UHGV virus genome: UHGV-0035817
Origin: a virus
Length of the DNA: 30,260 nucleotides
Direction: 5' to 3' (one strand)
The translations under genes were made by a program, and so were the position numbers. Every line of letters starts with the position of its first letter. Positions within the stretch are counted from its first letter, which is position 1. This document shows positions 1 through 30,230 of this stretch, in pieces. The notes below the pieces were generated by a model, which was given only the letters and a program-made list of their open reading frames with translations, did not search any database and was not told the origin of the DNA.

Positions 1-91
1 ATTGATTCATAAATACTCCCGCTATCAACTGACGCTAGTATAACGGAAGCAAATCATCTGCAATGCATTAAGCAGCAAGCAAATTGAGGAT

Positions 92-135
92 AAAAAAAAC
101 CCCCACATCATGTGGGGGAAGACAGGGATGGTGTC
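92..135. repeat. attL core: 44-bp direct repeat identical to 30187-30230
   Basis: Exact repeat AAAAAAAACCCCCACATCATGTGGGGGAAGACAGGGATGGTGTC at both ends of the phage gene block; contains hairpin CCCCCACAT/ATGTGGGGG next to an A8 run (a T-run terminator on the minus strand). Confidence 0.85.
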
Positions 136-183
136 ACAAAAAAGCACCTAACCTGATGATATAAATGGATTTATATCAAACGC

Positions 184-202
184 TGTCCACATAGCGTCCA
201 CA
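184..202. promoter_or_regulatory. Putative integrase arm-type binding sites (tandem TGTCCACA octamers), left arm
   Basis: TGTCCACATAGCGTCCACA; a near-identical 19-mer occurs at 30083-30101 just inside attR. Both lie in phage DNA flanking the core, as expected for tyrosine-integrase arm sites. Confidence 0.5.
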
Positions 203-212
203 TCGATTACCG

Positions 213-250
213 AAAGCCCCAAGCATATGGGGCTTTATTTTTTTCTTTTT
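213..250 (+). terminator. Rho-independent terminator (AAGCCCCA-loop-TGGGGCTT followed by T-rich run)
   Basis: GC stem and TTATTTTTTTCTTTTTT read directly. In the excised circular phage it would lie downstream of int across attP. Confidence 0.6.
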
Positions 251-297
251 TTAGATGTATAACACTTACTCAACCCAATGTTTATTAAGGATTTTCT

Positions 298-705
298 ATG
301 GCAACTCTTAAATCAATAATGGCAATAACCACCTTAATAATTTCACTCAATGCATACGCAAACACGAATGACATTAAAACTCTTCAAAAACAACTGAAAC
401 CATGGCAACCACTAGAAATCACAGCAAAAGATAGCTCTCTTACCGTTGTTCTCCCTGGTAAAAAAATCACATCTGAAGCCTATAATCATTTAATTATGTC
501 CGGTGTATGCACCCCACTTTGGACACATGACGCTCCTTCTTCATTTTTAAAAAATGTAAGTGAAATCAATATAGTTAACCAATATAAGTCTATTGGATAT
601 ACCTTTGAAGACCCATTGACCACATGCAATGAAATCGCTCCTTTAATGGAAAAACCTGCACAAACAGTGGTGTTATCCAAAACTCATACCTACACAGGTA
701 AGTAA
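298..705 (+). CDS. Hypothetical secreted protein (135 aa), accessory gene between attL and ogr
   Basis: ORF with N-terminal signal-peptide-like segment (MATLKSIMAITTLIISLNAYA then NTND), two Cys; visibly AT-rich versus phage backbone; flanked by hairpin terminators on both sides; no P2 counterpart that I recognise. Confidence 0.6.
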   Translation: MATLKSIMAITTLIISLNAYANTNDIKTLQKQLKPWQPLEITAKDSSLTVVLPGKKITSEAYNHLIMSGVCTPLWTHDAPSSFLKNVSEINIVNQYKSIGYTFEDPLTTCNEIAPLMEKPAQTVVLSKTHTYTGK

Positions 706-723
706 ATAGCTCAAATAAGATAA

Positions 724-752
724 AGCCCCTCGACTGAGGGGCTTTCTGTTTG
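724..752. terminator. Bidirectional hairpin terminator between the accessory gene and ogr
   Basis: AGCCCCTC-GACT-GAGGGGCT with T-rich flanks on both strands; sits 4 bp from the ogr stop. Confidence 0.55.
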
Positions 753-755
753 TAA

Positions 756-974
756 TTACATCCACATAATTTGCTGCCCTGACGGCAACGGATGCGGCCT
801 CACGGCGTGGACTTCTCCCGGCTTCACGATGTATCGCTGTACCGACTCATAAGTGATGAACGTGGCGCTGCAATTCACGTTCTGACACTGGTGATAACGC
901 TCTTTTGTCGTGTCAGTGATATAGCGACTTGTACGCGCATGTGCGGCATGCTGGCATAAAGGACAATGAAACAT
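756..974 (-). CDS. ogr: Late transcription activator Ogr (zinc-finger, 72 aa)
   Basis: MFHCPLCQHAAHARTSRYITDTTKERYHQCQNVNCSATF... matches my recollection of P2 Ogr; ORF track start trimmed to the ATG at 974 (RC of cat 972-974). Confidence 0.9.
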   Translation of the reverse strand: MFHCPLCQHAAHARTSRYITDTTKERYHQCQNVNCSATFITYESVQRYIVKPGEVHAVRPHPLPSGQQIMWM

Positions 975-1055
975 CGCGAGCACCTCTTCCGGTTTTGTTG
1001 ATGGTGCCATTTTAGTTAATTTATCCTTATAAAACAAACAGATAAAATAAAAACA

Positions 1056-2219
1056 TTACTCATCATCTTCGGTTTCGTACTCCACATCAGAAAGCCTGAC
1101 CTCAAGCTCTAAGGACGTCGTGAAGCCGCTATTATTCAGAAAATGTGTCACCTTAGTGATTGTCCAGTCCTGCTCGTCTATGACGCGCTTAAAGCCTGAC
1201 ACTCTGACCGGTGTTTCCGTGTAAATATCAGCACGACCAGTGGCAAGGCTGATGGAGAACTCCGCAACACCCCGTTGCAGCTTATCCCACTTCGCCTGAG
1301 CGGCGCGCATGGCCTGCGCTTTCGTGGCATATACCGTGGTCAGGGCAAAAACGTTGTCAGCCTCACCGGCCATGTATTCACCTTCGCGCGCTTCCGGTAC
1401 TTTTGGCGCTTTCTTCTGCGTGACTGGTTTCGCTTTCGGGTGCTCCAGTGCGCGCAGGTGTTTTTCTTTCTTTTTGCGTTTCAGTTTTACCTTCTGCTTT
1501 TGCGGCTTCGGGTCTTTGGTGTGAAGCCACTTTGCCGTTACGCCGGTATAGGCTCCACGGTCAGCAATCGCAAAATGATGACGATCGCCGTCGCTGCGGG
1601 TGATGGTGACCTGCGGGATTTTTTTACCGCTGGCCGTCACCCCCTGCCCCGCTTTGAGAAACAGCAGTTTTCCCATTTTTACCGACACCTCACCGCCGTT
1701 GCGTTCTGCAAGACGGGTCAGAAATTTCGCATCAGACTCCTGCGACTGGTCGATGTGCGGGATTTTAATTCCGGCCAGTGACGGAGCGACACTGGCTTCC
1801 AGCCTGTTACGGGAGGCTATCGCCTCAACAATCGCACCGAGCGTGGTGTCATGCCATGAGCCTTCACGGCGGGAATTGAGCGTCCCGCGAAAATCTGCAC
1901 TCCGGGCGCGGATGGTGACCACATCCGGTGCGCCCCGGTGTTCAACCTCATCAACGGTAAATTTCCCTTTGCATACCAGGGCAAAACCTTTCCAGCCGAT
2001 ATACACCGTCAGGACAGCGCCACGAACCGGCAGCCCGACCTGCCCGTCGGCATCGTTCAGTTCAATATCAAGCTGGTCAGCCTCAAAGCCCCGGTTATCC
2101 GTCAGGGTCATACTCATCAGACGGTCGCTGATATTGCCGGTAATATCCCTGCTGTCGAGCATCAGCATGTAATCCGGCGTCAGCGTACTGCCTGCATCAA
2201 ATGTCAGTGCATCCAGCAT
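1056..2219 (-). CDS. D: Tail protein D (387 aa)
   Basis: Length and position next to ogr and U as in P2; 387 aa equals P2 gpD length. Confidence 0.85.
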   Translation of the reverse strand: MLDALTFDAGSTLTPDYMLMLDSRDITGNISDRLMSMTLTDNRGFEADQLDIELNDADGQVGLPVRGAVLTVYIGWKGFALVCKGKFTVDEVEHRGAPDVVTIRARSADFRGTLNSRREGSWHDTTLGAIVEAIASRNRLEASVAPSLAGIKIPHIDQSQESDAKFLTRLAERNGGEVSVKMGKLLFLKAGQGVTASGKKIPQVTITRSDGDRHHFAIADRGAYTGVTAKWLHTKDPKPQKQKVKLKRKKKEKHLRALEHPKAKPVTQKKAPKVPEAREGEYMAGEADNVFALTTVYATKAQAMRAAQAKWDKLQRGVAEFSISLATGRADIYTETPVRVSGFKRVIDEQDWTITKVTHFLNNSGFTTSLELEVRLSDVEYETEDDE

Positions 2220-2698
2220 TATCCCGCCCCCGTCATATCCGTGAATTTAGTCGCCATACTGCCAGCCTTACCGATGAGCGATTCCGCCTGTTTACCGATA
2301 TCGCCATAAAGCGCGGCCAGTGATTCATCAACGCGGGTGAGCGACAGCGTAAAATCAATTTTTCGGGGTGTGCCGTCTGCAAAGAAAATACTCCCTGTTT
2401 CATTCACCCTGCTGATGACATACATGCCGTAAATCATGCCAGTGCCATCCAGCAACGGCCACGCCCGACCTTCCTCTGCCATCAGCCTGAGCGTGGTCAT
2501 CGTCAGCTTTCCGCCGGTCAGTTCGGGATAAAGCACGCCGGCAAGCGTGATGTTTTCCTCGCCAACACCGAGAAACTGAAAGGCATCCCGTTTACCGATA
2601 CGGGAATTTGACGGCCAGCGATAATCGGATTCACGCTGCATGGTCTGGTGTGGCAGCGTCTGGCGCATAAAAACAAACATACCTAACGCGAGCATCAT
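2219..2698 (-). CDS. U: Tail protein U (159 aa)
   Basis: Position between T and D, 159 aa as P2 gpU. Confidence 0.8.
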   Translation of the reverse strand: MMLALGMFVFMRQTLPHQTMQRESDYRWPSNSRIGKRDAFQFLGVGEENITLAGVLYPELTGGKLTMTTLRLMAEEGRAWPLLDGTGMIYGMYVISRVNETGSIFFADGTPRKIDFTLSLTRVDESLAALYGDIGKQAESLIGKAGSMATKFTDMTGAG

Positions 2699-7418: not shown

Positions 7419-8012
7419 CTATTTGTCCCGGTTGGTTAAGGGATGACACAATTTATTTTTTGTCACTGAGGCGGGGAATTTTTTATAGAGCGTGGACAGG
7501 CCAATATCAAAAATCAGTGCCACGCGTTGACGTGATTCCCCTGCAGCCAGCAACCGCCCGGCCTGCTCCCACTCACTCGCGGTGAGTTTCGGACGTCTGC
7601 CACCAATACGACCTTTGGCTCTGGCCGCCTCCAGTCCGGCGCGTGTCCGCTCGACAATGAGTTCTCGTTCCATTTCAGCCAGGGCACCCATCACATGAAA
7701 GAAAAAACGCCCCATCGGCGTGCTGGTATCAATAGCATCCGTCAGGCTGCGAAAATTAATGCCGCGTTCGCGCAGTTCCTCAACCAGAATGACCAGATGC
7801 CGCATACTACGCCCCAGCCTGTCCAGCTTCCAGACTACCAGAGTGTCACCTGCTGATAATGTTCTGAGCAGTTTTTTTAGTCCCGGTCGGTCGGACTTCG
7901 TGCCGCTGATTTTATCCTCAAAAATCAGCTCACATCCTGCGCACTCCAGCGCGTTACGCTGCAATTCCGTGTTCTGGTCATTTGTTGATACACGAACATA
8001 ACCTATACGCAT
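7419..8012 (-). CDS. Serine-family DNA invertase (Gin/Pin/Hin/Cin family, 197 aa)
   Basis: MRIGYVRVSTNDQNTELQRNAL...DTLVVWKLDRLGRSM...GINFRSLTD.IDTS.PMGRFFFHVMGALAEMERELI.ERT: catalytic Ser in YVRVSTNDQ and C-terminal HTH, very close to Gin as I recall it. Confidence 0.9.
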   Translation of the reverse strand: MRIGYVRVSTNDQNTELQRNALECAGCELIFEDKISGTKSDRPGLKKLLRTLSAGDTLVVWKLDRLGRSMRHLVILVEELRERGINFRSLTDAIDTSTPMGRFFFHVMGALAEMERELIVERTRAGLEAARAKGRIGGRRPKLTASEWEQAGRLLAAGESRQRVALIFDIGLSTLYKKFPASVTKNKLCHPLTNRDK

Positions 8013-8209
8013 AAAAATCCCTATAAAAACAGAATAATGACAGAGAATTATCTATATATGTACAAGCGGACAAGGCTATGGGCACTCAGTTACAGTAATC
8101 TTGCTGGATAAGAATATTTACTGATAGTGGATACATAGCCCACTTAGCATTCCCATGTGAAACAATTAAGTATGGTAAGATAGGTTGACCTCAATAAAAG
8201 GAAAATCTG

Positions 8210-8527
8210 ATGAACATCGATACCAATAAAAAAACCACCACACTGAAATATTTTGTCGAAGCCTATCCAGAGAGAATCACTGTTCAAGCGTGGGAACGCC
8301 TAGTCAATGAAATTGGTGATTTAAAAGAAGTTTATGGATATATCGCCTTTCTGCATGACGATGGGTATCTTACAGGAAAGGTAATCTTCGATGGTTCTCC
8401 TGAAAGTATTGATGGATGGAGTGTAGATACTGCCTCTCTAAGGATTACATCACAAGGTTATCATTATTGGAAAAAATTAAACCCTACAACACAAGGGAGT
8501 AGCGGAATCCTCAGAAGGAACAGATAA
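8210..8527 (+). CDS. Hypothetical protein (105 aa), AT-rich orphan gene between invertase and invertible segment
   Basis: RBS AAAGGAAAATCTG-ATG; AT-rich upstream region; followed by a long hairpin; no similarity I can recognise. Confidence 0.6.
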   Translation: MNIDTNKKTTTLKYFVEAYPERITVQAWERLVNEIGDLKEVYGYIAFLHDDGYLTGKVIFDGSPESIDGWSVDTASLRITSQGYHYWKKLNPTTQGSSGILRRNR

Positions 8528-8533
8528 CTAATA

Positions 8534-8565
8534 AAGATGGTAGCACCATTTGGTGTTACCATCTT
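8534..8565 (+). terminator. Hairpin downstream of the 105-aa ORF (AAGATGGTA...TACCATCTT)
   Basis: 9-bp perfect stem plus extended imperfect stem; no strong T-run, so terminator function is uncertain. Confidence 0.4.
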
Positions 8566-8654
8566 AAAATATACCGTTACAATCAGCACTTTCCATTTTT
8601 ATCTAACAATCAATACTAGGACATTCCCTTCTTTCAACATCATATTTAACCGAT

Positions 8655-8680
8655 TCCATAAAACGTTGGTTTGGGAGAAG
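8655..8680. repeat. Invertase crossover site, left (gix/pix-like 26-bp site)
   Basis: TTCCATAAAACG TT GGTTTGGGAGAA; half-sites resemble the TTATCCAAAACC / TTCCTGTAAACC family; 16/17 match in inverted orientation to 10406-10422. Confidence 0.75.
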
Positions 8681-9132
8681 GTTCTGCGTTGCCTGTTGGC
8701 GTACCAGTTCCTTGGCCTTCAGCTACGCCGCCGACAGGCTGGCTGAAATGCAACGGGGCTGCTTTTTCGGCTGAAGAATACCCGGAGCTGGCAAAGGCTT
8801 ACCCGACAAATAAATTGCCTGATTTACGCGGTGAATTTATTCGTGGCTGGGATGACGGACGTGGAGTGGATGCCGGGCGACAATTATTATCTTCACAGGG
8901 GGATGCAATAAGAAATATTGAGGGATTCGCAGATGGCGGGATCGGCATGTCTTTTGATGCAATCAGAGGGGCTTTTTACGATGCAGGAACACGATCAACG
9001 ACAATGGCGAATAACACAACTGCTATAGGCAAAACCGATGACCTTGGATTCGACGCCTCTCGTGTCGTGCCAACAGCTAATGAAAACCGTCCACGTAACA
9101 TCGCCTTTAATTATATTGTGAGGGCTGCATAA
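8671..9132 (+). CDS. Alternative tail-fibre C-terminal domain (Sv'-like), silent in this orientation
   Basis: ORF without its own ATG or RBS that begins inside the crossover site in frame (…GEGSALPVG…); would be fused to the constant part of H after inversion. Confidence 0.7.
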   Translation: MGEGSALPVGVPVPWPSATPPTGWLKCNGAAFSAEEYPELAKAYPTNKLPDLRGEFIRGWDDGRGVDAGRQLLSSQGDAIRNIEGFADGGIGMSFDAIRGAFYDAGTRSTTMANNTTAIGKTDDLGFDASRVVPTANENRPRNIAFNYIVRAA

Positions 9133-9725
9133 TGAAACCTGTTTTTGATGAAAATGGGCTGGCTACAGTACCGGGTAATATGCGTTGTTTTTATTATGAG
9201 GCAGTTACGTATGAATATACTGGCTGGTCTGATGAATATATTAATACTGGCGTAAGTATGCCCGCTTGTTCCACTGGTATTGACCCGGGCGAATACATTC
9301 CGGGAAGAGTGGCAGTATTTACGGGTAAGGGATGGAGCCATGAAGAAGACCATCGCAATGAGACTGTTTACTCAACAGAAAATGGCGCAGCTGTTACAGT
9401 GGATTATATCGGTGCCATCAAAGACGGTTATGTCACGCTTTCACCGTTAACGCCATACGATAAATGGGATGGTGAGAAATGGGTGACGGATACCGAGGCA
9501 CAGCATAGCGCCGCACTAGACGCGGCAGAAGCACAGCGCCAGTCACTGATTGATGCAGCAATGGCTTCCATTAGTCTGATTCAGCTGAAATTACAGGCCG
9601 GACGGAAACTGACTCAGGCAGAAACAACCCGACTTAACGCCGTGCTGGATTACATTGACGCGGTGACGGCAACAGATACCAGCACCGCGCCGGATGTCAT
9701 CTGGCCTGAACTGCCGGAGGCGTAG
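9132..9725 (+). CDS. Alternative tail-fibre assembly chaperone (U'-like, 197 aa)
   Basis: C-terminus ...[15 protein letters not shown], the typical tail-fibre assembly ending, shared with the convergent gene 9697-10125. Confidence 0.8.
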
Positions 9726-10125
9726 GCCATTCAATATCGGGTGCTGTTGAAGTATCAACACGCATCAGCAGCACACGGTATTTCTTCCATTCGGTGAGAG
9801 TTGAAGTTTCTTCATCAGTTGCGATATCAGCATCAACAGCATCCTGACGCCAGGATATTTCACTGTCAGCTTTTTCCCGTAATTGGGATTTTTTAACTTC
9901 AGCAATAGCTATTAATTCCTTTTTGGTCGGCTGAGGAATATCTATCAGTGCTGGTTTTCCATTCAGTGTTCCAATCTGTTTTCCTGGTGGAATATCCATA
10001 AATAACTTTTTATGTTCTTCCTCACTGACTATTACACCATCATCAGGCCACAGACCTGATGCCTCAAATTTTTCTTTCTCCGATATGGGGAAAAAGCCAT
10101 TTGCTTTAGCGCTCCATACGTACAT
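9697..10125 (-). CDS. Tail-fibre assembly chaperone (gpG/U-like, 142 aa), expressed orientation
   Basis: Immediately downstream of H on the same strand; C-terminus ...[19 protein letters not shown]. Confidence 0.8.
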
Positions 10126-22176: not shown

Positions 22177-23210
22177 TGAGCAAGAAAAAAGGGAAAACAC
22201 CGCAACCTGCGGCAAAAACAATGACCGCCAGCGCCCCGAAAATGGAGGCATTCACCTTTGGCGAGCCGGTGCCGGTACTCGACCGCCGTGACATTCTGGA
22301 TTACGTCGAATGCATCAGTAACGGCAGATGGTATGAGCCGCCGGTCAGCTTTACCGGTCTGGCAAAAAGTCTGCGTGCTGCCGTGCATCACAGTTCACCG
22401 ATTTACGTCAAACGTAATATTCTGGCTTCAACGTTTATCCCGCACCCGTGGCTTTCCCAGCAGGATTTCAGCCGTTTTGTGCTGGATTTTCTGGTGTTCG
22501 GTAATGCGTTTCTGGAAAAGCGTTACAGCACCACCGGTAAGGTCATCAGACTGGAAACCTCACCGGCCAAATATACCCGTCGTGGCGTGGAGGAGGATGT
22601 TTACTGGTGGGTGCCGTCCTTCAACGAGCCGACAGCTTTCGCGCCCGGCTCCGTGTTTCACCTGCTGGAGCCTGATATTAATCAGGAGCTGTACGGCCTG
22701 CCGGAATATCTCAGCGCCCTTAACTCTGCCTGGCTGAATGAGTCGGCCACGCTGTTCCGCCGCAAGTATTACGAAAACGGCGCACATGCCGGATACATCA
22801 TGTACGTCACTGATGCCGTGCAGGATCGCAACGATATCGAAATGCTCCGCGAAAACATGGTTAAGTCAAAAGGCCGCAATAACTTTAAAAATCTGTTTCT
22901 CTATGCCCCGCAGGGGAAAGCCGACGGCATTAAAATTATCCCGCTCAGTGAAGTGGCAACGAAGGACGATTTTTTTAATATCAAAAAAGCCAGCGCCGCA
23001 GACCTGCTGGACGCGCACCGCATCCCCTTTCAGTTGATGGGCGGCAAGCCGGAGAACGTCGGGTCGCTGGGTGATATTGAGAAAGTGGCAAAGGTCTTTG
23101 TCCGCAATGAGCTTATCCCGTTACAGGACAGGATTCGGGAAATAAACGGCTGGCTCGGTCAGGAGGTCATCCGCTTTAAAAACTACTCACTGGACACTGA
23201 CAACGGCTGA
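22176..23210 (+). CDS. Q: Portal protein Q (344 aa)
   Basis: 344 aa; follows P on the same strand and is followed by terminator and cos. Confidence 0.9.
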   Translation: MSKKKGKTPQPAAKTMTASAPKMEAFTFGEPVPVLDRRDILDYVECISNGRWYEPPVSFTGLAKSLRAAVHHSSPIYVKRNILASTFIPHPWLSQQDFSRFVLDFLVFGNAFLEKRYSTTGKVIRLETSPAKYTRRGVEEDVYWWVPSFNEPTAFAPGSVFHLLEPDINQELYGLPEYLSALNSAWLNESATLFRRKYYENGAHAGYIMYVTDAVQDRNDIEMLRENMVKSKGRNNFKNLFLYAPQGKADGIKIIPLSEVATKDDFFNIKKASAADLLDAHRIPFQLMGGKPENVGSLGDIEKVAKVFVRNELIPLQDRIREINGWLGQEVIRFKNYSLDTDNG

Positions 23211-23213
23211 ACA

Positions 23214-23238
23214 TCGCCGCCTGCGGGCGGCTTTTTTA
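23214..23238 (+). terminator. Rho-independent terminator of the P-Q operon
   Basis: GCCGCC-TGCG-GGCGGC followed by TTTTTT. Confidence 0.8.
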
Positions 23239-23379
23239 CACCCCGTCATCACGCCCTCACACGCTCACCACCGCGCAAAACAGCCCGCAGACAAACCAAC
23301 GCCCCGGCGCACAATCTAAACGCCATTACGACGCGCTGAGACGCTGAAAAAATAAAATCAGCACCACCGCCAGCGCGCA

Positions 23380-23398
23380 GTGCTTTCCCCGCCTCGCC
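23380..23398. other. cos site (19-nt cohesive end)
   Basis: GTGCTTTCCCCGCCTCGCC is the reverse complement of GGCGAGGCGGGGAAAGCAC, the P2 cohesive-end sequence as I recall it. Confidence 0.8.
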
Positions 23399-23683
23399 CG
23401 CCCGCTTCACGGGGCGGTTTTAATGCAGTTGCATAGATACTATGGATCCGCACCAGTCCTGACCGCACGCAGCCTGAACGGACATCCCCAACGCATGCAA
23501 AAACATTCACTTGTTGCATGCATAGCTTTTTAAGTACGCCATACCGCAACTGTACATTTTTAAGCAATTGGCAACCTTAAAAAATTTACATTGCTTTCAA
23601 GACCTTATCATCCGTAGTCTCTGTTTTTTACTTTGAGCTACATCAATAAAATCTCAAACATGTTTAATGCAAAGCCCTTGTTA

Positions 23684-23737
23684 CACAACATAGAATGTAT
23701 GTCTAGAAACAACGACATACTATATGTTGTGTTTTTC
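23684..23737 (+). ncRNA. Long imperfect hairpin (about 17 bp paired) followed by T5; candidate small RNA 3' end or terminator
   Basis: ACACAACATAGAATGTATGTC ... GACATACTATATGTTGTGT then TTTTT; lies ~450 bp past the P-Q terminator, so it ends some other short transcript. Confidence 0.35.
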
Positions 23738-23876
23738 CGGCTCTCTGTTCGGTGATATGCCAAATCACTTTGCGTTTAAACAGAGCATTATTTCAGGGCA
23801 AGACTTCGCTCAAAAGTCATTCCACCTAAGAAGCGCATATACCGGTGGAAGTTGCCCTCTACTTACAGGAGGCAAT

Positions 23877-23990
23877 ATGAAGAAATGCTATTACTGCATT
23901 CTCGTTCTGGCCCTCTTTGGCTATCCAAACGGTAGTCCGAGTGGTTTGTCAGTAAACGTCAGTAATATCAATGTCAGCATTATGCTTTAA
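23877..23990 (+). CDS. Small ORF (37 aa) with hydrophobic N-terminus
   Basis: AGGAGG 4 nt upstream of ATG; MKKCYYCILVLALFGYPNGSPSGLSVNVSNINVSIML; stop is followed within ~15 bp by a strong bidirectional terminator. Confidence 0.4.
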   Translation: MKKCYYCILVLALFGYPNGSPSGLSVNVSNINVSIML

Positions 23991-24002
23991 TATGCTTCAA
24001 AC

Positions 24003-24033
24003 AAAAAAACCACCTGCCAGGGTGGTTTTTTTG
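24003..24033. terminator. Bidirectional rho-independent terminator (A7-ACCACC...GGTGGT-T7)
   Basis: GC hairpin flanked by A-run and T-run; terminates the small ORF on plus and probably the A operon on minus. Confidence 0.75.
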
Positions 24034-24292
24034 CGCCCATCATCAATACGATGAAAGACTGACAAGACTTCGCTCAAGACGAATTATGCGTCGACATAAG
24101 GTTACCCGCAATGATTTTATTAGACTAAATGGATGGCCTTTTATGACCCGGATCAAACGGCTGTCCTTACCGACATGCTAGTCACTCAATAGCATTTAGC
24201 CTTCTAATTCAGCATGCTATTGACCTTCTGCTGCCCCATAACTGCTCCGCATAAGCCATTCAATGCCATATCAAATCACGTTGTGTTTTTAC

Positions 24293-26569
24293 TCAAATGG
24301 GTAACGAGAACCCCGGCCACTCATCAGCAACCGGATACGTGAATTTTTTCCCGTCATAATTTACGGTCGCGCCACGCGCCAGCGCCTCAAGCTCCCATCG
24401 TTGCGGCCTGATACCGTTCTGAGCGAGGTCAACGCGGATACGGGTAATTTGCAATCGTTCAGACCTGGTCAGTCTGGCAGATGGTGCAATTTCATGCGGT
24501 TTTAACGGGATTCCGTTTCTTTGCTGACGATTTGGTGTTCTCAGTCCGTGTTTTAATGCGCCCCTGAGCGCCATCACGACCTCCGGGTCACTCCATTCGA
24601 TAACACCGTCATCTACCAGATTAAGCACTGCTGCGGCGTGCTCAGAAGGTGTGGGAGCCGGTAACGAAGTATCACCACCGGTGAGCTTTCCACAGTTATT
24701 GACAGGACTCCGAGGCGCGGCGATGCCGCTTTTTAAAGTCAAAGGCTCAACGACCGGAACTTTCGGCACAATGCGCCAGTCCGTCGTTCTGGTGATATGA
24801 ATATGACGCGCGCCGAGATGCGGCGCGTAAATGCCGACCACTCTCTCGACTTCTTCCTCGTACTCGTTAACGTCATCCGACAGACTACGGGCGACCCTGA
24901 CAGTCTGACAATCGCGCGGGACATTTGCCCCGCCCTGCGCGCTGATATACAGCGCAAAATCACCACTGTCTGCGGCGGCGCGTGCAGCCTCGACGCGCTC
25001 GTCAAACTCATCAGCAATGCTGACGCCGCGAGGCAATTTGCGTAGTTCACGGTAAGCCCCCATTGTCGGCAGGCCAACCGTTTTAAATTGCGGAATGCGC
25101 CACGTTGACGCCCATGCGGTAACAGCCGCTGCAGTGTCTTTCAGCGGCCTGCCGGTGTCGTTATCGAGCTGACCATCCAGTGCATAGCCGTCGATGTTTT
25201 TTGAAATGTATTTCGCGATATATCCCGCAGCACCGCCCCGGTTAAGGTGTTTTGCCTGAAAACGGTTTCGCGCGGCTCCTCTTTCGTCGCCATCCTCTTT
25301 GAGCGCATAGCGACGCATGATTTCGATAATCTGGTTACGCTGGCGTGGATGACAAAAAAGCATCATATGCCAGTGCGGCGTTCCGTCGTGGTGTGGCTCG
25401 ACGACTCGCAAACCGTAGACCTGTAAATCATTATCCTTGAATGCCGTGCGCATCAGGCTCCAGATACGGCAGAGATAACGCTGCGCATCCTTTGGATTAA
25501 ATGCCTCATCGTTCCAGCCGTGATTAAGCTGAACGGTTTTACTTTCGCCTTTTCCGACCTGACGTGTCGGGTGATACTTTGACGGCGCGGTCAGCGTGAT
25601 AAACATCCCCACATCACCCTCTGCGGCGGCGTAACGCTCAATACCGGCAATGGTGTTCATCAGCTCCATCCGGCGAATTTCAGGATTAGAAATACTGCCC
25701 ATCACCTTACTGATAAGGTCGATGCGCTCGCCGGTTTCCCTGTTTTCAAGGTCACACGATTTAAGAAATTCCAGATTTGCCTGGCGGCGCGCACGCACAT
25801 CACGAATGGCGTGTTTACTGGCATAAGGAGAACGGTCTTTATTGACCTCCCCGACAGCTATCAGTAACGCCTCATGCCAGCGCATACGCTGGCCTTTAAG
25901 CTGATGAGTCCACCACTCATCGTTAAACAGGCGGGCAATGGCAGAATATGCCTGCCTCGTGGTCATCTGTCCTTTACGGTATTTTTTCCAGTAGAGCGGG
26001 GAAATATTGAAAGCACGTGCAGCGCCAGCAACATGACCATACAGGTGAGCCTGCGCCTCATCCGTAAACAGCGATTCTTTTTCACCATGCGCATCAACCC
26101 ATGCATCGCAGAGTTCCTCATACATCATGAAAAGCTGCGATGAGATACGGGCGGCAAACTTTTTCAGCTCCTTGTCATTCATTCCCGGCAGGCGCGCATA
26201 GTGGTCACGCTCTGCCAGAAACAGCAACGACGCGTCGGTGTTCATTTCATGGCGCTGATTCACACGCTCAATGCGCGGCCATAAACGACGCTGAAAAGTA
26301 GATGTGAGGAAATAAAACCCGTGCACCGGGCTTTTATTGCGCCGGATGTAGTCATAGCGTGAAGTAAACAGCGAGCGCAAAAAGTAAGGCAGGCGGTTAA
26401 TCGTGGATAAAACACCTTGCACCTGACGCATCTCGTCACGTGTAAGAGGTCTTTCGCGCCCGACAGCCTCGCGTGGCGCGTTCCATGCATAAGCACCGGT
26501 AAACGCCTTACCGGTGCCTGCGGTAAATGCTGACGGAGGGACAAAACGCCCGGAGGCTTTAACGGCCAT
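24293..26569 (-). CDS. A: Replication initiation protein A (rolling-circle nickase, about 758 aa)
   Basis: MAVKASGRFVPPSAF... matches my recollection of the P2 gpA N-terminus; the ORF track uses an upstream TTG at 26611, so the start is uncertain. Confidence 0.85.
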   Translation of the reverse strand: MAVKASGRFVPPSAFTAGTGKAFTGAYAWNAPREAVGRERPLTRDEMRQVQGVLSTINRLPYFLRSLFTSRYDYIRRNKSPVHGFYFLTSTFQRRLWPRIERVNQRHEMNTDASLLFLAERDHYARLPGMNDKELKKFAARISSQLFMMYEELCDAWVDAHGEKESLFTDEAQAHLYGHVAGAARAFNISPLYWKKYRKGQMTTRQAYSAIARLFNDEWWTHQLKGQRMRWHEALLIAVGEVNKDRSPYASKHAIRDVRARRQANLEFLKSCDLENRETGERIDLISKVMGSISNPEIRRMELMNTIAGIERYAAAEGDVGMFITLTAPSKYHPTRQVGKGESKTVQLNHGWNDEAFNPKDAQRYLCRIWSLMRTAFKDNDLQVYGLRVVEPHHDGTPHWHMMLFCHPRQRNQIIEIMRRYALKEDGDERGAARNRFQAKHLNRGGAAGYIAKYISKNIDGYALDGQLDNDTGRPLKDTAAAVTAWASTWRIPQFKTVGLPTMGAYRELRKLPRGVSIADEFDERVEAARAAADSGDFALYISAQGGANVPRDCQTVRVARSLSDDVNEYEEEVERVVGIYAPHLGARHIHITRTTDWRIVPKVPVVEPLTLKSGIAAPRSPVNNCGKLTGGDTSLPAPTPSEHAAAVLNLVDDGVIEWSDPEVVMALRGALKHGLRTPNRQQRNGIPLKPHEIAPSARLTRSERLQITRIRVDLAQNGIRPQRWELEALARGATVNYDGKKFTYPVADEWPGFSLPI

Positions 26570-29017: not shown

Positions 29018-29086
29018 CTCTATATAAAGATTACATTTTCACCATTTGCTACCAAGATGGTGAATACAGCGCCGGAGGGCTTTCTT

Positions 29087-30067
29087 ATGGCAATTAAGAA
29101 GCTCGATGATGGTCGCTATGAAGTGGACATTAGACCTCGCGGTCGCGACGGAAAACGCATCCGCAGGAAATTCGAAAGAAAAGCTGAAGCACTAGCATTT
29201 GAGCGATACACAATCGCCAATGCCAGTCAGAAAGAATGGGGAGGCCAGCGAGCAGACCGCCGGACTTTGAGTGAGTTGCTGGACATCTGGTGGAAATATC
29301 ACGGGCAAAACCACGAGCATGGAACAAAAGAGTTTAATCATCTACTCAAAACCATCAGCGGCATAGGTGATATACCAGTGAGCAGGATGAGCAAAAGGGC
29401 TTTGATGGATTATCGTTCCATGCGACTACGTGATGGTATCAGTGCCGCAACGATAAACCGTGACATGTACCGATTATCCGGCATGTTCACAAAATTAATT
29501 CAATTGGATGAATTTTCCGGGCAACACCCAATTCACGGACTGCCGCCACTGGCGGAGGCCACCCCTGAAATGACGTTCCTGGAAAAAGCAGAAATCGAAA
29601 AACTGTTAAATGTTTTGGCTGGTGATGACTTACTTGTCGCGCTTTTATGTCTGAGCACCGGAGGAAGATGGACGGAAGTTGCCACGCTAAAACCAGCACA
29701 GATTACAAATTGCAGGGTTACCTTCCTGAAAACCAAAAACGGTAAAAAGCGAATCGTGCCGATTTCTGAGGAACTGGAGAAAAAAGTTAAAGAGGAGGCC
29801 AGCGCCAAATTATTCAAAGTTGATTATGAGAAATTTTGCGGGATTTTACGCAGAGTGAAACCTGATATACCACCCAATCAGGCAACCCACATCCTGCGGC
29901 ATACATTCGCAAGCCATTTCATGATGAATGGGGGCAATATAATCGCACTGCAACAGATTCTGGGACATGCGAGCATTCAGCAGACGATGGCCTATGCGCA
30001 CCTTGCGCCTGACTATCTGCAAAATGCCGTCGCTCTGAATCCACTAAAAGGCGGAGTGACGTTATAA
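29087..30067 (+). CDS. int: Tyrosine integrase (326 aa)
   Basis: MAIKKLDDGRYEVDIRPRGRDGKRIRRKF... P2 Int-like N-terminus; C-terminal catalytic region HILRHTFASHFMMNGGNI...LGHASIQQTMAYAHL; start trimmed to ATG with GGAGGG RBS. Confidence 0.9.
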   Translation: MAIKKLDDGRYEVDIRPRGRDGKRIRRKFERKAEALAFERYTIANASQKEWGGQRADRRTLSELLDIWWKYHGQNHEHGTKEFNHLLKTISGIGDIPVSRMSKRALMDYRSMRLRDGISAATINRDMYRLSGMFTKLIQLDEFSGQHPIHGLPPLAEATPEMTFLEKAEIEKLLNVLAGDDLLVALLCLSTGGRWTEVATLKPAQITNCRVTFLKTKNGKKRIVPISEELEKKVKEEASAKLFKVDYEKFCGILRRVKPDIPPNQATHILRHTFASHFMMNGGNIIALQQILGHASIQQTMAYAHLAPDYLQNAVALNPLKGGVTL

Positions 30068-30101: not shown

Positions 30102-30186
30102 CTCAAGAAATTTTGAAACCGCTCCAAACCCTTACAGCTTTCGATAAGTACCTGTTTTTACTTTTGATTGCATGTAAGTAATTGAT

Positions 30187-30230
30187 AAAAAAAACCCCCA
30201 CATCATGTGGGGGAAGACAGGGATGGTGTC
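30187..30230. repeat. attR core: 44-bp direct repeat identical to 92-135
   Basis: Exact repeat; host-like sequence continues after 30230. Confidence 0.85.

Follow-up and report, generated by a model that had tools for sequence, protein, structure and literature searches.

The window analysed here is the whole stretch of 30,260 nucleotides (nt) of UHGV virus genome UHGV-0035817, which consists of a complete P2-like (Peduovirus) prophage of about 30.1 kb in the E. coli chromosome. Near its left end, between the attachment site attL and ogr, a single gene on the plus strand (298-705, ATG start) encodes a pre-protein of 135 amino acids (aa), with a predicted signal peptide (codons 1-21, 298-360) and a predicted mature periplasmic domain of 114 aa (codons 22-135) that contains Cys71 and Cys110. 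A first-pass annotation made from the letters alone had proposed an accessory gene for a secreted protein, insulated by two terminators and serving lysogenic conversion, exclusion or periplasmic defence. Its 135-aa open reading frame (ORF) was found as described, and is also annotated in RefSeq as hypothetical protein WP_000212592.1. We refer to it as the cargo gene, since it is carried on a cassette of 507 nt (211-717, plus strand, about 35% guanine-plus-cytosine, GC) absent from gene-less P2-like phages. Convergent with it on the minus strand is ogr (756-974; Pfam Ogr_Delta, E=1.1e-21; RefSeq ogrK), encoding the late-gene activator of 72 aa.

The limits of the cassette were given by pairwise alignment with Peduovirus P2_4B2, in which the sole gap was 507 nt long, at window 211-717; typical P2-like phages likewise match the window in two pieces, one on either side of the cassette. 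In gene-less P2_4B2, the attP P' arm (...GTCCACATCGA) leads directly into one bidirectional hairpin (AAAGCCCCTCAACTGAGGGGCT), followed by ogr, so the position of the gap indicates that the cassette brings its own upstream hairpin. P2 itself also lacks the cassette, in agreement with the earlier statement that P2 has no gene between ogr and the attachment site. Carriers of the gene were detected in 45 of 5426 complete E. coli genomes, 44 of them at the same junction, corresponding to about 6% of the 790 prophages located there. The 507-nt junction against P2-type genomes and the 44-45 carriers among about 790 prophages bear out the accessory status that had been claimed.

The cassette opens with an intrinsic terminator on the plus strand (213-252), a stem of 9 bp at 213-236 followed by a T tract to about position 252, with a folding energy of -15.1 kcal/mol (z -3.1 against shuffled sequence). 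The stem is kept, with differing loops, in the Salmonella and Serratia alleles. It would block rightward transcription arriving from the att side, whose source is int in the circular phage and the host in the prophage. Downstream of the gene, a bidirectional hairpin with a stem of 10 bp (722-745) is common to the cargo gene (plus strand) and ogr (minus strand), with -18.1 kcal/mol on the plus strand and -19.5 kcal/mol on the minus strand (z about -4.2). Within positions 1-1100, six terminator-like sites were seen against 0.8 expected. Gene-less P2_4B2 has an almost identical hairpin, its only one there, and the 722-745 hairpin is the ogr/int terminator ancestral to P2-like phages. The upstream hairpin repeats the one at 722-751 in direct orientation, with identical stem arms and a spacing of 509 nt. 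Both hairpins of the proposed insulated layout are real, and its description is refined in that the downstream one is the ancestral ogr terminator, already present in gene-less P2-like phages, and the upstream one a second copy.

Between the upstream terminator and the start codon lies a short leader. The Shine-Dalgarno sequence AAGGA (287-291, plus strand) is located 6 nt before the ATG; the GGAT core does not vary among the six aligned alleles, and AAGGAT is present in five of them, Serratia having ATGGAT. The leader conserved across the aligned alleles is CCAATGTTTA(T/A)TAAGGAT. A candidate -10 element, TATAAC, was noticed on the plus strand at 258-263, 35 nt 5' of the ATG, with a poor -35 element lying within the T tract. 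The TATAA(C/A) motif is present in five of the six diverged aligned alleles, Escherichia MOD1 reading TATGAA, and the Salmonella allele could be read by eye as TTGTTT-17 nt-TATAAA. A sigma-70 consensus scan between the upstream terminator and the ATG (237-297) gave no promoter, and the TATAA(C/A)-type element is a weak promoter candidate, no more. An Ogr-dependent late promoter upstream of the gene was rejected, since reading by eye gave only TGT-N13-ACA at 184-202, misplaced relative to any -10 element and overlapping direct repeats read as putative Int arm sites. A published transcriptome of Salmonella prophages (PMC7067206) covers BTP5, a 186-like prophage, and is without data on the cargo gene.

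In composition, the cargo gene, noted as AT-rich in the first-pass annotation, is the lowest-GC part of the prophage. Its GC content is 35.8% against 52.8% for the prophage and its GC at third codon positions is 28.9% against 60.6% for gene D (phage late control D); only three of 595 segments of 408 nt fall below 36% GC, all at this gene. The copy in Burkholderia phage KS14 has 64% GC in a genome of 61% GC, so low GC is typical of the enterobacterial copies, not of the whole family. The rates of nonsynonymous (dN) and synonymous (dS) change were determined by comparing the window gene with the Salmonella, Serratia and second E. coli alleles. For the mature part, dN was 0.09-0.22 and dS ranged from 0.75 to saturation, with dN/dS between 0.03 and 0.14. 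The 21 leader codons, with dN of 0.4-0.6, showed three- to fourfold faster nonsynonymous change than the mature part while retaining hydrophobicity, which is the usual behaviour of signal peptides. The ORF at 298-705 is a functional gene under strong purifying selection.

Two alleles of the cassette exist in E. coli. After comparison of window 1-2300 with the corresponding region of a second carrier (locus L005, 5700-8000), the difference was found to be confined to about 205-750: the flanks are 96-100% identical, the leader region 86-92% and the mature coding part 60-76%. In the second allele the first 18 codons show a dS of 0.12 and the mature part a dS of 1.5, and the mature part resembles Citrobacter alleles. 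This pattern points to replacement of the cassette within an otherwise identical backbone, with an intragenic recombination breakpoint near the leader-mature boundary, close to the signal-peptide cleavage site.

Taken together, the cassette is a classical 'moron': a single gene, preceded by an upstream terminator of its own and by a short leader that offers a good ribosome-binding site. It is precisely absent from relatives, deviates in composition and has a downstream terminator, shared with ogr. A core gene of Peduoviridae would look different, because the cargo gene is absent from P2-type genomes and lies on the strand opposite to ogr and the tail operon, with a terminator between. The accessory exported-protein reading is sound, and the object is an ordinary prophage moron, already present as a hypothetical protein in RefSeq and as a family in PHROGs. 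We hold this anatomy, and the description of the product as an optional exported cargo protein, with high confidence.

The signal-peptide-like N-terminus, ending LNAYA and followed by NTND as the first-pass annotation had pointed out, has n-, h- and c-regions and an A-x-A site that recur family-wide. The N-terminal sequence MATLKSIMAITTLIISLNAYA, then NTND, includes K5 in the n-region, a hydrophobic core of 11 residues and A19-Y-A21 before N22, with a Kyte-Doolittle mean of 2.05 over residues 6-16. Of 115 diverse homologues, 83% have Ala at position -1 and 94% have Ala or Ser there, 93% have A, V, S, T or G at position -3, and 101 show a hydrophobic run of at least nine residues within their first 35; a few members carry lipobox-like leaders. 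By this canonical leader, the protein is predicted to be exported through Sec and processed by signal peptidase I, with cleavage between AYA and NT. The two cysteines also held up well, C71 and C110 both being kept in 113 of the 115 homologues, 108 of which have exactly two cysteines in the mature part.

Near-invariant residues of the family are limited to P38, C71, N94, G100 and C110. Across the 115 aligned members no conserved His/Asp/Ser/Glu constellation was detected, which suggests a binding role rather than an enzyme. AlphaFold2 with an alignment of 118 sequences gave a predicted local distance difference test score (pLDDT) of 95.8 and a predicted template modelling score of 0.87, while an earlier alignment of 12 sequences had reached a pLDDT of only 39.9. 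The mature domain is thus confidently modelled as a compact alpha/beta fold without a catalytic signature.

An exhaustive profile search (E<=0.001) collected full-length homologues in 193 clusters at 50% identity, most of them of 120-138 aa with the same layout. The window protein matched phrog_3807 of PHROGs v4 ('unknown function') with E=3e-60 and 203 bits over residues 1-135 of 135, and all 115 diverse homologues matched it likewise. This is the family of the window protein, with no difference between the two; since it carries no functional annotation, membership leaves the mechanism unexplained. The window protein had no match at E<=1 in Pfam and NCBIfam, and the 115 homologues gave only scattered single matches there with E>0.005, the lysozyme inhibitors Ivy and MliC/PliC being included in the comparison. 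No family among the defence models of PADLOC-DB 2.0 matched at E<=1, and neither a sequence-profile nor a fold match to families of solved structure was obtained. Nor was the protein found to be homologous to any conserved phage protein with a structural or regulatory role.

The gene is not peculiar to this one prophage. The family, already known as phrog_3807, occupies the same slot in all 40 Peduoviridae phage loci examined. In each, a family member is convergent with ogr/D at a distance of no more than about 100 nt from ogr or D. The loci, 32 of which came from a scan of IMG/VR, represent the hosts Escherichia, Salmonella, Klebsiella, Serratia and Burkholderia. Divergence of the gene roughly parallels that of its neighbours, with 44-51% identity when ogr shows 57-64% and D 63-70%. 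In Yersinia phage P37 (98.5% aa identity), Yersinia phage GMS190 and Salmonella phage FSL SP-004 (69%) the gene separates attP from ogr, and it adjoins D convergently in Serratia phage KSP20 (35%) and as gp9 in Burkholderia phage KS14 (24%). In the Salmonella and Serratia ficaria chromosomes it is also found at the fieF-side attL. A scan of species-representative genomes gave one locus.

The copy of Klebsiella phage ST147-VIM1phi7.1 (44%) is located between ogr and D (locus L013, 3189-5109). This order, ogr - gene - D instead of gene - ogr - D, was observed at three loci (L013, L030 and L031), indicating that the cassette has sat on both sides of ogr during the evolution of Peduoviridae. The GenBank note on gp27 of FSL SP-004 (locus L002), 'gp9; similar to Burkholderia phage KS14; Gp11', was set aside as misnumbered, since KS14 gp11 is tail protein U and the true homologue is KS14 gp9.

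Homologues are also present outside phages. One, from a metagenome bin of a gammaproteobacterium, is flanked by icd and tldD. Those of Chromohalobacter, Alcanivorax and Denitrificimonas belong to arrays of small orphan ORFs that all run on one strand, with transposases, a toxin-antitoxin pair or a fragment of an integrase nearby. No conserved operon partner was found for the non-phage homologues, the neighbours differing from locus to locus. In Chromohalobacter israelensis (QEQS01000004.1), a homologue of 129 aa stands in a same-strand array of unrelated small ORFs beside an integron-type integrase fragment, and is flanked by attC-like imperfect palindromes GCCTAAC...GTTAGGC (locus L017, 7898-7981 and about 8395-8478); from these elements it looks like an integron gene cassette. 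In longer proteins the domain follows membrane anchors or is combined with pentapeptide repeats, a bacterial PH domain, an Excalibur domain or a VasI domain. Four such fusions among the distant homologues are P0132 with VasI (type VI secretion-associated), P0058 with pentapeptide repeats, P0070 with Excalibur (calcium-binding) and P0161 with PH and a membrane anchor. As the fusion partners are membrane or extracytoplasmic domains and the gene neighbours are unrelated, the domain behaves as an extracytoplasmic, self-sufficient module. The interest of the gene is modestly raised by the slot conserved in Peduoviridae, the lack of Pfam or structural relatives and the integron-like cassette occurrence.

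Based on these features, we can propose a mode of action. The protein would be exported via Sec and cleaved after A21, a single disulfide would form in the periplasm between C71 and C110, and the protein would act alone, binding a periplasmic target to the advantage of the lysogen. The target could most readily be the entry step of a competing phage, namely superinfection exclusion at the envelope. A periplasmic binding protein serving the lysogen, by exclusion or by envelope protection, is the most likely function that we infer. The proposal of exclusion draws on the combination of optional temperate-phage cargo, allele exchange in identical backbones, a self-sufficient exported module and the precedent of Glo of phage K139, discussed below. 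Conversion, exclusion and periplasmic defence, the three roles listed by the first-pass annotation, are all plausible, and homology, fold matches and neighbourhood favour none over another. Exclusion specifically is possible by analogy but doubtful, while the best explanation as a whole, a blend of the anatomy and exclusion, comes close to an even chance without reaching it.

An alternative partner for the mature domain would be a toxin or enzyme in place of a phage component. The protein could be a periplasmic inhibitor, an 'orphan immunity' protein against a type VI effector, a colicin or bacteriocin domain, a lysozyme, a lytic transglycosylase or a protease. Its small size, predicted export, single cysteine pair and lack of a catalytic signature are consistent with such a role, as are the wide occurrence, outside phages, of stand-alone copies in variable regions and in an integron-like array, the lipobox-like leaders of a few members, which recall soluble/lipoprotein inhibitor pairs, the fusion of one homologue to VasI and the exchange of alleles within identical backbones. 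However, no cognate toxin gene was detected beside any copy examined, no known inhibitor or immunity family in Pfam or the PDB matched by sequence or fold, and the strict association with ogr/D in Peduoviridae would be left unexplained. We regard this alternative as unlikely.

Alternatively, the gene could serve the life cycle of the phage itself rather than lysogenic conversion, its product being a periplasmic factor, made in lytic growth or at entry, that assists penetration by the tail, the timing of lysis or the shielding of the infected cell. In support, all 40 Peduoviridae loci have the gene next to the distal end (D) of the tail operon, the gene has diverged roughly in step with ogr and D, and a constitutive consensus promoter was not found. 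Against such a role, P2 and about 94% of the otherwise near-identical E. coli prophages at the site do without the gene, which is placed on the strand opposite to the late operon with a terminator between; by eye, no correctly placed late-promoter-like element TGT-N12-ACA was seen upstream, and homologues exist outside phages. We consider a role in the phage life cycle improbable.

Host interaction is a still less probable role, in which the protein would be a virulence conversion factor altering adhesion or resistance to serum, bile or antimicrobial peptides. In its favour, the gene is prophage cargo near the att site with a product predicted to be exported, and phi-CTX ctx and lambda bor/lom occupy positions comparable to that of the cargo gene. 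The carriers include isolates from human blood, a porcine enterotoxigenic E. coli and avian isolates, but they come from many unrelated sources, seawater, soil and manure among them; distant homologues are present in free-living marine bacteria, and no known virulence family in Pfam or NCBIfam showed similarity. Finally, a decaying hitch-hiker, its ORF kept by chance, would account for the AT-rich composition and for the lack of a recognisable promoter or known domain, but is excluded by the selection and conservation data, namely dN/dS far below 1 with saturated dS and intact full-length homologues in 193 clusters, and is at odds with the highly confident predicted fold.

The chromosomal setting of the cassette was also analysed. 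Over positions 1-1060 the window matches the chromosome of E. coli strain elppa4 with 100% identity, and the annotated order there is fieF, hypothetical protein, ogrK, phage late control D, tail protein and tape measure. The minus-strand gene fieF has its start codon at about window base 10, and homology to free P2-like phages begins at base 89. The attL core (89-135; GATAAAAAAAACCCCCACATCATGTGGGGGAAGACAGGGATGGTGTC) is 47 bp long and identical to the attR core at 30184-30230, which lies downstream of int (integrase, 29057-30067), a gene that ends just before attR. The core holds a full hairpin on the minus strand, CCCCCACATGATGTGGGGG followed by T8, and is terminator-like; from the known E. 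coli gene order cpxP-fieF we take this hairpin to be the terminator of cpxP. On this reading, the prophage site is the cpxP terminator, upstream of fieF. As the att core carries the terminator hairpin, integration apparently remakes the cpxP terminator at attR and leaves a second copy upstream of fieF. The attL junction was detected in 790 of the 5426 complete E. coli genomes (176-nt probe across the junction, coverage of at least 80%), so this cpxP/fieF-side attL is a common integration site.

Next to the core, the P' arm of attP includes two direct repeats, TGTCCACA and GTCCACA (184-206), which are kept in six of six aligned alleles and in gene-less P2_4B2, the cassette starting a few bases later. 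In view of the P2 attP literature, these are probably arm-type Int binding sites. Between them and the att core, a perfect inverted repeat of 10 nt was noticed at 157-178 (TGATATAAAT-GG-ATTTATATCA), largely kept in five of the six aligned phage alleles and partly degenerate in the Serratia allele; it may be the binding site of a protein of the recombination complex. A search of the window against Rfam matched no RNA family.

Two other variable regions of the prophage were inspected. The Z/fun-type slot (7419-10125), a low-GC region, contains a serine DNA invertase (7419-8012; Resolvase and HTH_7), a tail-collar fragment ORF (8671-9132) and tail-fibre assembly genes at 9132-9725 (plus strand) and 9697-10125 (minus strand). 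The slot resembles an invertible switch of tail-fibre host range, of the Mu Gin / P1 Cin type. Beside the invertase, an ORF of 105 aa (8210-8527, plus strand) in low-GC DNA had no Pfam match. The classical old/tin defence hotspot, flanked by portal gene Q and replication gene A (23210-24293), is here an interval about 1.1 kb long with about 38% GC and contains no ORF of 90 aa or more; the longest, of 88 aa at 23724-23990, has a hydrophobic internal start (MKKCYYCILVLALFG), and Rfam gave no match. An empty main P2 hotspot, as this interval appears to be, is unusual (PMC13586616).

A large share of E. coli genomes contain P2-like prophages, whose two classical hotspots have been a source of many defence systems. 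The known hotspots of P2 are gpA-Q (old/tin) and the tail-gene site (Z/fun), with minor ones at int-att and int-primase; the ogr-side slot is not named among the hotspots in these sources (PMC9122126, PMC13586616, bioRxiv 10.1101/2024.10.15.618418). The present finding marks a further, little-noticed cargo position by the attachment site, held by one uncharacterised exported family across phages of several host genera. On the widest view, the ogr/D-att junction would be a third accessory slot of Peduoviridae for an old, fast-swapping periplasmic single-disulfide family that is also borne on integrons, and its product a new single-protein envelope barrier against phages, tailocins or periplasmic toxins; we consider this full proposal speculative and not probable. 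Being a single small gene with a confident fold and with natural carriers and non-carriers, it makes its function directly testable. If an exclusion or immunity factor is indeed encoded, it would bring a single-protein mechanism in the periplasm to a field in which cytoplasmic systems prevail; otherwise, it is an ordinary hypothetical prophage gene.

Like the P2 morons old, tin and Z/fun, the cassette is AT-rich optional cargo, absent from related phages, swapped between backbones and predicted to form its own transcription unit. It differs from them in its slot, which lies beside ogr, either towards the attP P' arm or towards D, and in its product, predicted to be exported whereas theirs are cytoplasmic; the cargo protein has no sequence similarity to them and no PADLOC match. 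The cassettes of sedentary chromosomal integrons carry attC sites, whereas the window copy is without attC and is bounded by two copies of a terminator hairpin. Other small periplasmic proteins of prophages act in superinfection exclusion, and P1 Sim, T4 Sp, T5 Llp and lambda Bor are small exported proteins of resident phages that act at the envelope. These four were absent from the fold-search matches of the cargo protein, no homology search having been aimed at them. The best functional analogue is Glo of the P2-like Vibrio phage K139, also a member of Peduoviridae, a protein of 137 aa with a signal peptide, encoded at the lysogeny/att end and annotated in the K139 GenBank record as 'periplasmic protein; involved in phage exclusion'. 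Homology between the two was rejected, hhalign giving a probability of 28% over 12 aligned columns, all within the signal peptide. The glo gene sits in the cI-int operon beside int, while the cargo gene forms a separate unit on the other side of attP.
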